A stretch of DNA of 64,000 nucleotides from an uncultured Burkholderiaceae bacterium (GTDB taxonomy: Bacteria > Pseudomonadota > Gammaproteobacteria > Burkholderiales > Burkholderiaceae_C): the NCBI GenBank assembly GCA_964439605.1, contig CAYTPC010000146.1, positions 17,602-81,601 on the forward strand. Direction: 5' to 3'. Positions 56,756 through 59,692 of this stretch are shown one piece after another. A program made the position numbers and the translations under genes. The notes under the pieces are model-generated. The model searched no databases. It was not told the DNA's origin and was given only the letters and a program-made list of their open reading frames with translations. Position 1 is the first letter of the stretch; every line of letters begins with the position of its first letter.

Positions 56756-56831
56756 TGGTGGGCCCTGTAGGATTCGAACCTACGACCTACGGATTAAGAG
56801 TCCGCTGCTCTACCAACTGAGCTAAGAGCCC
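56756..56831 (-). tRNA. tRNA-Lys (anticodon CUU)
   Basis: The reverse complement is GGGCTCTTAGCTCAGTTGGTAGAGCAGCGGACTCTTAATCCGTAGGTCGTAGGTTCGAATCCTACAGGGCCCACCA. Anticodon stem GCGGA/TCCGT, loop CTCTTAA. Confidence 0.9.
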
Positions 56832-56909: not shown

Positions 56910-57398
56910 TCATTTCTGCCGCTCGTAGGTGACGAACGCAAACCGCAGTCCATTGGATGAGGCGTTGTTTTCGCATGCAACGCGCGTCCATTGGGCATCG
57001 AGTTCGGGCGCGAGCGCGTCGCCTTCGAAGTCCTGCGCGATCTCGGTGACGACCGCGCGTTGGGCCAACGGCAGGGCCTCGCGGTAGATTTGTGCACCGC
57101 CGATCACCCAGACTTCGCCTTCGTGCGCGCACTGGGCGAGCGCGTCGCGCAGGTTCGCGGCATGCACGGCGCCGTCCGCATTCCAGTCCGGTTGGCGCGT
57201 GAGGACGATGTTCGTGCGCCCGGGCAGCGGCCGAAAGCGCGGCGGCAGCGAATCCCAGGTCTTGCGGCCCATGATGACTGGGCAGCCTGCCGTCGTGCGC
57301 TTGAAATGCACCATGTCTTCGGGCAGATGCCAGGGCAGCGCGCCATTCTTGCCGATCACGCCGTTGGCGGCACGGGCATAGATCAGGTTCAGGCGCAT
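56910..57398 (-). CDS. folA: Dihydrofolate reductase
   Basis: Start ATG 57398 (MRLNLIYARAANGVIGKNGALPWHLPEDMVHFKRTTAGCPVIMGRKTWDSLP…), 162 aa. Confidence 0.9.
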   Translation of the reverse strand: MRLNLIYARAANGVIGKNGALPWHLPEDMVHFKRTTAGCPVIMGRKTWDSLPPRFRPLPGRTNIVLTRQPDWNADGAVHAANLRDALAQCAHEGEVWVIGGAQIYREALPLAQRAVVTEIAQDFEGDALAPELDAQWTRVACENNASSNGLRFAFVTYERQK

Positions 57399-57429
57399 GG
57401 GAATTTGCCTCGTTTTCAGGGTTATTGGC

Positions 57430-58794
57430 TCAGTCGTCAAAGTTAAAGCACCAATGGGCAAGATGCCTCAATTCTCTTGCACTGCCGTCCGGAACTTTGT
57501 CTGGTTTAGGCTGGTCCTCGGCCGGAGCGGGGACATTTCGCGCGATTCGCCGAACCCAGGGCGTTCTATCGAGTGCGGATGTCCACATCTGCCAGCGCCC
57601 CTTCCGGCTTCCTTGATAGCGCAAAATCAAATCGTTTGCAGAAGGAATATTCCTGAATACACCGGCCAGATATTCGCAGCGGACACGAGCAATTCCACTC
57701 TTGTTCTTCGCCGTGCTGCCCTCGTGACAATACACCGTCACCCACGTGCCCTCCTGCACGCGGATGGCGTACACGTCGCCAGCTTGCGCGGGACCGGATC
57801 CGGCCTCTAGGGATGTTTTCGTGAAAACGTGTTTCGAGGTGCGGCGGCGTTCAAACGCGCCAGTCAAGGTTTCGGCCAGCGCCGGCTCGGGGGTTGGGCG
57901 TTTGCCCGTGGCGTCCACTACGCTCAGGTGAAGATGGCCGAATACCGCATCGAATACATCCTGCTGGATGCCGCAGGACGAATCCCACCACGCCAGCGGG
58001 GCTTGTACTTCCACGCGAATATTCGGGCGCGTGTCACGGTCACGGTAATTCGTGAATTTCGTGAGCATGCCCGGATATTCGGGTGTCGCAAGAATTCCGA
58101 CAATCGCCAACGCTTCCAGCAAGGACTGATAGGCGTAGTCATTGTTTGACGGCAGCAGCCTGGCTTTTTTGAGTATTTGCGCCGCCCTGGAGTAACGGGT
58201 TCTCGGCGGCAGCTTTCGCAGCACGTCAAAAATGGCCGACAGCGTCCAGAGATCATATTTGGTGGGAATGGGTACGCCGGAGGAGAGGCGAAGCTGGCGC
58301 ATTTCGCGCAGCAATATCACGTGCTCCGGCACGTGCCCATCGATCGGGACTCCTTGCGTCATCCCGAAATACCAAGCGAGCGTTTTATCTTCCGTGCTTC
58401 CCTGGTGAAAACCGCAGATGCCACAGATGTTTTCGGATGCGGTCGGTTCGCTGAAAAGCTCGTAGGCATGGATCGGCATTGCATAGCCAAGGGCTTTTCC
58501 GGTTAAGGCAGAGCGCCAAATCCATGGCGCGGACCACAGCGAGGCGGCAAAGGCGCTGGCGGCTTCCTGGAGGGTCCATTCGGCGGACAGTGTCTTGAGT
58601 TCAGCCACTGCTTTGTCATGGTCGAATTGCTCGAATGTATTGACCATTCGCCCGGCCTTTTCGAGCTCGTCCAGCGTGGAAGCGGCCATGAACGACGGAA
58701 TCCGGTGCATGTGTTGGCCGGTGGCATCGTCGTAATAGTTGCTGCCAAGCGCCACAATCTGTTTGAGTGCGAATAATTGATCTACCGTGTTCAT
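57430..58794 (-). CDS. Hypothetical protein, 454 aa, no family recognised; compositionally atypical insert between thyA and folA
   Basis: A single uninterrupted ORF, 58 nt after the thyA stop and 31 nt before the folA start, on the same strand. Rare codons for this genome appear at the 5' end (GTA, CAA, TTA, AAA, ATT). My hand-counted samples show lower GC than the neighbours. Only a CGICGFH patch (aa 124-130) and scattered Cys/His/Trp stand out. Confidence 0.7.
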   Translation of the reverse strand: MNTVDQLFALKQIVALGSNYYDDATGQHMHRIPSFMAASTLDELEKAGRMVNTFEQFDHDKAVAELKTLSAEWTLQEAASAFAASLWSAPWIWRSALTGKALGYAMPIHAYELFSEPTASENICGICGFHQGSTEDKTLAWYFGMTQGVPIDGHVPEHVILLREMRQLRLSSGVPIPTKYDLWTLSAIFDVLRKLPPRTRYSRAAQILKKARLLPSNNDYAYQSLLEALAIVGILATPEYPGMLTKFTNYRDRDTRPNIRVEVQAPLAWWDSSCGIQQDVFDAVFGHLHLSVVDATGKRPTPEPALAETLTGAFERRRTSKHVFTKTSLEAGSGPAQAGDVYAIRVQEGTWVTVYCHEGSTAKNKSGIARVRCEYLAGVFRNIPSANDLILRYQGSRKGRWQMWTSALDRTPWVRRIARNVPAPAEDQPKPDKVPDGSARELRHLAHWCFNFDD

Positions 58795-58852
58795 GGAGAT
58801 CTGATGGTGTTGAGTTCAGTCAATTTCTTCTCCGGGGCAGAAAAAATCTGCT

Positions 58853-59692
58853 TCAGACTGCCACGGGCGCTTTGATCGCCGGGTGACATTGGTAATCGTG
58901 CACCTCGAAGTCTTCGTATTCGTATTCGAAGATCGAGGCCGGTTTGCGCCGGATGTGCAGTGTCGGGTATGGGTAGGGCGTGCGTGAGAGTTGCAGCGCC
59001 ACTTGTTCGGCGTGGTTGCTGTAGATGTGGCAGTCGCCGCCGGTCCAGATGAAATCGCCCACGTCCAGGTCGCACTGTTGCGCGATCATGTGCGTAAGCA
59101 GCGCGTAGCTGGCGATATTGAAGGGTACGCCCAGAAAGATGTCCGCGCTGCGCTGGTAAAGCTGGCAGCTCAGCCTGGCGCGTTGGCCTTCGTGCGCCGG
59201 CGCGACGTAGAACTGGAAGAAGGCGTGGCAGGGCAGGAGCGCCATCTTCGGCAGATCGGCCACATTCCAGGCGCTGACGATGATGCGGCGCGAGTCGGGG
59301 TTGGTTTTGAGTGCTTGAATGACTCCGGCGATCTGGTCGATGTGTCCGCCATCGGGCGTGGGCCAACTGCGCCATTGCACGCCATACACCGGACCGAGGC
59401 TGCCGTCCTCGCGCGCCCATTCGTCCCAGATCGTCACGCCGCGCTCGCGCAGCCAGTTGTTGTCGCTCGACCCCTGGAGGAACCACAGCAGTTCGTAAAT
59501 GATCGACTTCAGATGCACCTTCTTGGTGGTGACCAGCGGAAAACCTTCGCTCAGGTCAAAGCGCATCTGATGGCCGAACACACTCTTGGTGCCGGTGCCG
59601 GTGCGATCCATTTTGAACACGCCCTGCGTATCCACATGGCGCATGAAATCTTCGTACTGTGAGCGGATCGGGCGGTTGTTCATTTGGCTCAT
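58853..59692 (-). CDS. thyA: Thymidylate synthase (ThyA type)
   Basis: …[19 protein letters not shown]…LWFLQGSS…, catalytic [12 protein letters not shown]-terminus …AIKAPVAV. Confidence 0.95.

Follow-up and report, generated by a model that had tools for sequence, protein, structure and literature searches.

A single-gene insert in the thyA-folA operon of a Burkholderiaceae bacterium: probable horizontal acquisition and a candidate immunity-type function

Immunity proteins of polymorphic-toxin systems are cytoplasmic, non-enzymatic binders, with leucine-rich repeat (LRR) proteins among the named immunity superfamilies, and toxin-specific immunity proteins show strong conservation of the interface with which they bind (PMC3482391). 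Polyimmunity proteins combine unrelated Imm domains and tetratricopeptide repeats (TPRs), usually without an adjacent toxin gene (PMC3482391). Imm26 is predicted to confer immunity to Tox-URI1 nucleases and occurs in polyimmunity loci of heterogeneous make-up (Zhang et al. 2012, PMC3482391). Acquired orphan immunity genes which protect bacteria that do not produce the toxin have also been documented (bioRxiv 10.1101/471110; PMC12247911; PMC10470768). Here we describe a 454-aa protein, labeled X, encoded between thyA and folA in a 64,000-nucleotide stretch of DNA from an uncultured Burkholderiaceae bacterium (assembly GCA_964439605.1, contig CAYTPC010000146.1, positions 17,602 to 81,601; hereafter the window). 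X is very probably the product of a single gene acquired horizontally into a conserved thyA-folA pair, at a junction which serves related bacteria as a recurrent cargo slot. As to its function, we see about an even chance that X is a solitary ("orphan") immunity-type, toxin-binding protein of the kind found in polymorphic-toxin systems.

Gene X and the thyA-folA cargo slot

The genes thyA, X and folA are all located on one strand. A first-pass annotation of this DNA had described a 454-aa open reading frame (ORF) at 57430-58794, separated from thyA and folA by gaps of 58 and 31 nt, and the ORF list and Pfam matches confirm this arrangement. The start codon of X agrees with the N-termini of 54 homologues in the family alignment. 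The features of the junction are as follows:

58853..59692, minus strand: thyA, thymidylate synthase (PF00303 Thymidylat_synt, E 4e-125); upstream flank of the slot
58795..58852, minus strand: thyA-X junction, 58 nt, AT-rich; read directly
57430..58794, minus strand: coding sequence of X, from the ORF listing; two-domain member of an undescribed family
57399..57429, minus strand: X-folA junction, 31 nt; contains the folA ribosome-binding site (GAGG); read directly
56910..57398, minus strand: folA, dihydrofolate reductase (DHFR; PF00186 DHFR_1, E 1e-52); downstream flank of the slot

The foreign composition first noticed from counts by hand is borne out when X is set beside 29 window genes whose coding status is confident. 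Its G+C content at third codon positions (GC3) is 0.653 versus 0.798 +/- 0.028 (z = -5.3), which is below the reference minimum of 0.742, and its codon adaptation index is 0.518 versus 0.680 +/- 0.042 (z = -3.9). The G+C content of the whole gene is 0.571, compared to 0.618 for the window, and the codons AAA, ATT, GTA, ACA, AGA, ATA and TTA are over-used 2-5 fold. Elsewhere the GC3 of the X family tracks that of the host genome, the extremes being 0.30 (low-GC Firmicutes) and 0.98 (Cellulomonas), and the copy in the window has thus not yet adapted.

Seventy-nine related Comamonadaceae loci (set L010-L089), each with thyA and folA in the same order, were compared with the window, and homologues of X were sought by tblastn at 1e-5. 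The window ThyA is 77-88% identical to those of the 79 loci and the window DHFR is 61-71% identical to its counterparts, the nearest genera for the two proteins being Polaromonas, Rhodoferax, Variovorax, Acidovorax and Hydrogenophaga. Both comparisons assign the host to the Comamonadaceae. No homologue of X was found at any of the 79 loci. In 58 of these thyA directly adjoins folA, with gaps of 0-263 nt (typically about 20 nt); the sequences of the empty junctions, typically ~11-30 nt in length, are unrelated to that of the X junction. The proposal that X had been acquired alone, with an empty site to be looked for in close relatives, is therefore sustained by its absence from all 79 loci, by the 58 in which thyA abuts folA, and by the want of mobile-element scars. 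The gene order around X recurs in an independent JGI metagenome contig.

The remaining 21 loci carry another insert, of 720-2,150 nt, at the thyA-folA junction. The commonest passenger is an EamA-family transporter with a native GC3 (~0.9). Others include an MFS-like membrane protein (to which the Pfam scan was not applied) followed by an EamA-like gene, DUF4337, a family-3 solute-binding protein (SBP_bac_3), a TPR protein, TfoX_C, and a 347-aa protein without an assigned family. One locus, L082, holds a gene of low GC3 for a 301-aa protein with a CAP12/Pycsar-type TIR domain (PF10137, E 4e-27). Example passenger sites are:

L082:5099-6004
L020:5090-5989
L021:5366-5983
L012:3875-4633
L043:4741-5949
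L023:4929-5972
L026:5738-5995

Since the slot in relatives holds such unrelated cargo, the position of X reflects the site and not functional coupling to its neighbors. We are highly confident in the two parts of this account taken together, namely that X was acquired horizontally as a single gene and that the thyA-folA junction of Comamonadaceae is a recurrent, permissive single-gene cargo slot of which X is one recent occupant. Whatever the function of X, the junction offers a clean, family-wide permissive slot within an essential operon (21 of 79 loci with passengers), which should be useful for studying how the expression of a foreign gene can be guaranteed without mobile-element machinery.

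A scan of the gene strand revealed no promoter-like or terminator-like site in either of the short gaps flanking X, and direct reading of the thyA-X junction found no good Shine-Dalgarno sequence ahead of the ATG of X. The simplest expectation is that X is transcribed by read-through from the thyA operon. A perfect 5-bp hairpin (GCAGA-TTTTT-TCTGC) lies in AT-rich surroundings directly after the thyA stop codon, at 58838-58852 on the minus strand, and was not scored as a terminator by the simple scan. Unlike the AT-rich thyA-X junction, the empty thyA-folA junctions of the relatives are GC-rich, and the hairpin may have been imported along with X.

No direct or inverted repeats bracket X, nor are there mobile-element scars of note around the insert. 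The first-pass annotation was correct on the repeats; it overlooked a tRNA-Lys(CTT) gene at 56756-56831 on the minus strand, which lies 78 nt downstream of folA, does not abut X, and so does not bracket the insert. Beyond this tRNA gene the order in the window is pilB-pilC-pilD-coaE. A pilB homologue is found downstream of folA in none of the 79 relatives, within the ~6 kb examined, which indicates that synteny breaks at tRNA-Lys. Genes for tRNAs are classical integration or rearrangement points.

Protein family, architecture and predicted structure

Although X had been taken for an orphan, a word-indexed search of a large protein database yields at least 128 homologues at E <= 1e-3, and an exhaustive phmmer search gives 303 representative clusters at 50% identity. 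The homologues are nearly all full-length (435-455 aa), 36-59% identical to X and carry no annotation beyond "hypothetical". Among the hosts are Paenibacillus, Blautia, Cellulomonas, Leucobacter, Prescottella, Mycobacterium, Clavibacter, Sanguibacter and Corallococcus, together with many metagenomes, and the distribution is patchy across phyla. The N-terminal ~290 aa constitute an independent domain (the N-domain), which also occurs alone in proteins of ~270-300 aa, with other C-terminal extensions, and within larger proteins of 486-752 aa. The C-terminal module is confined to the full-length, ~440-aa branch; its hidden Markov model (HMM) matched no ORF lacking the N-domain in any fetched locus. 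Searches with the HMMs of both domains found no extra copy of either in the window or in any fetched locus.

The alignment of 55 family sequences reveals 28 invariant positions, including H59, C124, C127, D181 and the block ERDxRP-x3-RVEVQAPLAWW, which is clearly the mark of a real protein maintained by purifying selection. In the 440-aa branch the invariant charged residues are distributed over both domains (D181, R253, R256, E262, E374, R400 and R416). When 54 divergent sequences of the N-domain superfamily are aligned (28% mean column identity), only H59, F82, H109, C124, C127, P266 and W270 are invariant. In two loci (L126:5992-7309 and L128:5369-6845) the N-domain and the C-terminal module are found in different frames, and in L126 the ORF ends early, at 347 aa; these copies are apparent frameshifts or pseudogenes, which suggests that loss of function is tolerated in some hosts.

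The view that X belongs to no recognized family has stood up to searches of sequence and structure alike. X has no match at E <= 1 in Pfam, NCBIfam, PADLOC or PHROGs, and a per-member scan of 55 homologues found no recurring Pfam family even at E <= 10. No match to X was found in a phage collection by tblastn. A profile search of the large database with the N-domain mostly returned the 440-aa branch again, with no new domain fusions. Against the sequences of the PDB, X as a single sequence gave only spurious matches to GFP (E >= 0.012), and the N-domain profile gave nothing below E 0.1.

An AlphaFold2 model of X, built with the family alignment, is globular and confident (pLDDT 93.6, pTM 0.89). 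It agrees with the anatomy read at first from the sequence, a helical N-terminal region and a beta-rich C-terminal module, and defines the following parts:

57910..58794, minus strand: N-terminal domain, aa 1-295, mostly helical; core of the superfamily (phmmer, HMM and model)
58414..58425, minus strand: CxxC motif (C124-G-I-C127), which with H59 and H109 would form a His2Cys2 zinc site
57790..57909, minus strand: Pro-, Thr- and Arg-rich connecting segment, aa 296-335
57433..57789, minus strand: C-terminal beta-barrel module and terminal helix, aa 336-454; ~440-aa branch only

The CxxC motif, part of a CGICGFH patch (aa 124-130) that had been pointed out before and whose two cysteines are invariant in the family, is placed by the model on a loop or hairpin. 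H59, H109, C124 and C127 are all invariant in the 54 divergent superfamily sequences, and this pattern suggests a structural His2Cys2 site, which putatively binds zinc. The segment between the domains had been described as a Pro/Thr/Ser-rich linker (aa 297-335). It is indeed a Pro/Thr-rich connector, basic in character (pI 10.3), and does not look like a floppy spacer: it is modeled with fair confidence (pLDDT 74-97) with a short helix at 310-316, and P300, P304 and G334 are nearly invariant. For the C-terminal module the model predicts six strands (341-418) and a helix (439-449). To judge from the high pTM, the N-domain and the barrel pack together. There is no transmembrane segment or signal peptide in X (maximum 19-aa hydropathy 1.19).

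A Foldseek search of the model against PDB and BFVD found nothing at E <= 1e-3, and the N-domain matched nothing. To judge from the model, the N-domain and barrel of X would represent a new fold and an undescribed superfamily.

Genomic contexts of the relatives and the proposed function

The context most suggestive of function belongs to an N-domain-only relative, P0200, located on a Listeria booriae-type Firmicute contig (L129). Its gene lies on the same strand as a 1,784-aa Rhs gene and begins 4 nt ahead of the Rhs stop codon, an arrangement that looks like the canonical one for the cognate immunity gene of an Rhs toxin. The Rhs protein contains the families DUF6531/RHS_repeat/TEN_YD-shell, and the end of its core (...DPIGL) is followed by a strongly basic tip of ~140 aa (pI 10.5, net charge +18). 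The tip and P0200 make a concrete candidate toxin-immunity pair. A tentative likeness of the tip to the Tox-URI1 signature "Y, YxG, R, [RK]xxE, N" was seen by eye. The surrounding region (L129:2650-16518) contains, after the Rhs gene, genes for VWA, Phage_GPD (VgrG-like), pentapeptide-repeat, DUF4280 (PAAR-like) and DUF4176 proteins, which we read as a spike set resembling those of type VI secretion systems (T6SS) or extracellular contractile injection systems (eCIS) in a Gram-positive genome.

Further associations come from domain fusions and from mobile loci. The N-domain is fused to Pfam Imm26 in four distant representatives (E 1e-13 to 1.6e-17 in three, weak in the fourth) and to TPR repeats in another; the N-domain HMM recovers the Imm26-fusion protein, which was outside its training set, at E 3e-63. 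P0008, a member of the 440-aa branch that is 49% identical to X, adjoins a PRTRC mobile cassette and genes for SMI1_KNR4 (SUKH), Imm68, DUF2262 and DUF6138. On a mobilizable Niallia plasmid the genes DUF2716, N-domain, SMI1-KNR4 and, further along, DUF4304 form a same-strand run flanked by insertion sequence (IS) elements, with a Doc-family toxin-antitoxin (TA) toxin a few kb away. A Streptomyces plasmid carries an N-domain gene alone amid a nest of transposases. In Bartonella sp. HY038 (CP059725.1, L136:8256-11781) a compact cluster comprises a HEPN_LA2681 gene, a 71-aa ORF, an N-domain gene and an LRR gene; the ~7-kb stretch beside it, which has no called genes and was checked for a decayed toxin gene, contains only short junk ORFs and is probably an rRNA operon.

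Two other observations concern the mobility and setting of these relatives. The PRTRC cassette (Prok_Ub, PRTRC_E, ThiF and Prok-E2_D; L008:1-2471 and L009:2475-5941) lies directly beside the 440-aa-family copy on a low-GC contig (GC 0.38-0.41), which suggests that this copy is carried by an integrative or conjugative element. On the Paenibacillus cellulositrophicus megaplasmid NZ_CP045296.1 (L133:372-7443) an N-domain-only relative is found directly upstream of genes for a GTP-binding protein and for rpsN and rpmG paralogues. These neighbors resemble what we take to be a zinc-starvation (Zur-type) cluster, a curious setting beside the predicted His2Cys2 site.

Set against the features of the immunity class, the relatives of X provide the fusions to Imm domains or polyimmunity loci (the Imm26 and TPR fusions, and the neighbors of P0008 and of the Niallia and Bartonella genes), and X itself is a cytoplasmic globular protein without an enzymatic domain. 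A gene position directly downstream of a toxin is seen for P0200 only, the neighbors of X being thyA and folA. N-domain copies are found on plasmids and in IS nests, with a patchy phyletic spread. The superfamily conserves the metal ligands and a few structural residues, with no catalytic constellation, which fits a non-enzymatic binder, and the conserved charged residues in both domains of X fit the strong conservation of the binding interface expected of toxin-specific immunity proteins. DUF1963 was not counted as evidence of immunity, as the one paper found on it argues for a chaperone-like role and does not place it in an immunity setting. Our confidence in an immunity-type function for the N-domain superfamily is moderate.

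If X is such a protein, it would have landed in the permissive thyA-folA slot as a stand-alone passenger gene, and read-through of the operon would give constitutive expression without a promoter of its own. The putatively zinc-stabilized helical scaffold, with the small barrel packed against it, might bind and block a toxin domain delivered by rival bacteria through Rhs/T6SS, contact-dependent inhibition (CDI) or type VII secretion system (T7SS)-type systems. The target toxin would plausibly be basic and act on nucleic acids, and X would protect a cell which does not itself make the toxin.

Several findings weigh against this reading. The sole case directly adjacent to a toxin, P0200, is an N-domain-only protein with ~25% identity to X and no barrel, and for the tip of its Rhs neighbor there is no Pfam or PDB sequence match and, in the word-indexed database, no homologue. 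The 440-aa branch was examined in about 22 independent genomic contexts: no neighbor cluster is common to them, none has a toxin gene beside the family member, and most of the neighbors are transporters, methyltransferases, GNATs, TetR regulators or housekeeping enzymes. Several Paenibacillus genomes have the gene in synteny between a peptidyl-prolyl isomerase (PPIase) gene and ribD, with native codon usage; there it resembles a resident that is inherited stably more than an immunity gene of fast turnover. X, with its 454 aa, is larger than most immunity proteins, and the window contains no toxin-delivery system next to it. The 28 invariant residues, many of them charged and found in both domains, could equally mark an active site. 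The C-terminal module was also tried as a divergent Imm26 and rejected, hhalign against a four-sequence Imm26 profile giving 2% probability.

Some of these findings would suit a conserved cytoplasmic zinc-binding protein with some role in the cell, whether as enzyme, as chaperone or as regulator, which is resident in lineages like Paenibacillus and occasionally transferred, X being here a neutral or mildly useful hitch-hiker. The synteny and codon adaptation in Paenibacillus speak for it, as do the housekeeping neighborhoods of most contexts, the full-length conservation with its invariant charged residues, and the megaplasmid copy beside genes which resemble a zinc-starvation cluster. It sits badly with the extremely patchy spread over phyla and with the absence of the gene from all 79 host relatives; the superfamily conserves only metal ligands, no enzyme family or fold is matched, and the Imm26 fusions, the position after an Rhs gene and the SMI1_KNR4, Imm68 and LRR neighbors would go unexplained. 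We consider this account rather unlikely, if worth serious attention. The lack of a common neighbor in the ~22 contexts implies, for the family in general, that the protein acts alone or with unlinked partners, and this bears on the readings of X as a selfish gene of the addiction type, another role suggested at first, or as the toxin of a TA pair. A lone foreign gene in an essential operon, whose deletion by recombination could be risky, and the Doc-family toxin in one plasmid context would be in keeping with addiction; the missing conserved partner, the lack of any toxin- or nuclease-like fold, and the frameshifted L126 and L128 copies, in which loss is tolerated, make it very improbable.

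The first-pass annotation had also proposed that X, as a single gene, serves in phage defense or abortive infection by sensing or acting on dTMP/folate metabolism, or else that it regulates the thymidylate cycle. X does lie within the operon, neither gap containing a terminator-like site, the slot in L082 holds a defense-associated TIR gene, and the family is mobile and patchy, with one relative adjoining a HEPN gene. However, neither thyA nor folA is found beside any homologue elsewhere, whether in the ~22 contexts of the 440-aa branch or in the N-domain-only contexts examined, and the slot carries unrelated and mostly non-defense cargo (EamA), so that a role in dTMP or folate metabolism finds no footing. 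Nor does phage defense: X has no PADLOC match, no phage homologue by sequence or structure and no recognizable effector-like domain, and among 70 neighbors in 17 contexts PADLOC gave scattered single matches only (HEC-02, an AriA/PtuA-like ATPase, and mad2 three times), with no apparent enrichment in defense genes. We regard this proposal as improbable. The same low standing is given to the idea that X is a self-contained conflict protein of new fold, for instance a sensor of toxins or phage components, and that the thyA-folA junction of Comamonadaceae is a dedicated hotspot which captures conflict genes (X and the TIR gene of L082) and ties their expression to an essential nucleotide-metabolism operon perturbed by phages and toxins. 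The intuition that X is a conflict or defense gene survives in another form, with immunity to interbacterial toxins favored over phage defense.

The finding makes no new link to thymidylate metabolism, nor does it render a long-standing open question testable. As no metabolic-defense link was found, what remains is a solid case of horizontal transfer, a candidate immunity superfamily and a defined cargo slot. If the immunity-type function is true, the N-domain proteins would constitute an unrecognized superfamily of interbacterial immunity, with ~300 clusters at 50% identity in several phyla, a new fold and a putative zinc site, and this would help to annotate "hypothetical" genes in conflict islands.

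Comparison with known systems

A horizontally acquired orphan immunity gene is a known kind of gene; the protein family of X is new, being absent from all curated libraries searched and having no structural neighbor. The best, and weak, structural resemblance is that of the C-terminal module to the SH3-like barrels of Tudor, Agenet and BAH domains (Foldseek E 0.15, probability 0.51). It is not significant, with a target-normalized TM-score of <= 0.28 and no evidence of an aromatic cage, and is probably a generic similarity among small barrels.

In concept X is much like the acquired interbacterial defense (AID) or orphan immunity genes of gut Bacteroidales (bioRxiv 10.1101/471110; PMC12247911; PMC10470768), which are likewise acquired by non-producers. 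Those genes, however, are found as arrays on recombinase-bearing mobile elements and have verified toxin partners, whereas X sits by itself in a housekeeping operon and has no recombinase.

Imm26 (PF15428) shares polypeptides with the N-domain in the four relatives mentioned, and the C-terminal module of X opens with a similar G-D-[VI]-[YF] strand. Unlike this module, which is modeled as a beta-barrel, Imm26 is described as mostly alpha (PMC3482391), and none of 55 members of the X family matches PF15428 at E <= 10.

From the Imm families at large (PMC3482391) X differs in the absence of its domain from the curated libraries searched, in the lack of a structural match and in its putative His2Cys2 site. 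It is also large, with two domains in 454 aa, has no toxin or Imm neighbors of its own, and belongs to a family whose Paenibacillus members are stable chromosomal genes. It resembles them in that one relative directly follows an Rhs toxin gene, in the Imm26 and TPR fusions, and in the SMI1_KNR4, Imm68 and LRR neighbors of other relatives. X is also cytoplasmic and belongs to no enzyme family, and its family is patchy, mobile and often without a toxin gene, much like the polyimmunity proteins.

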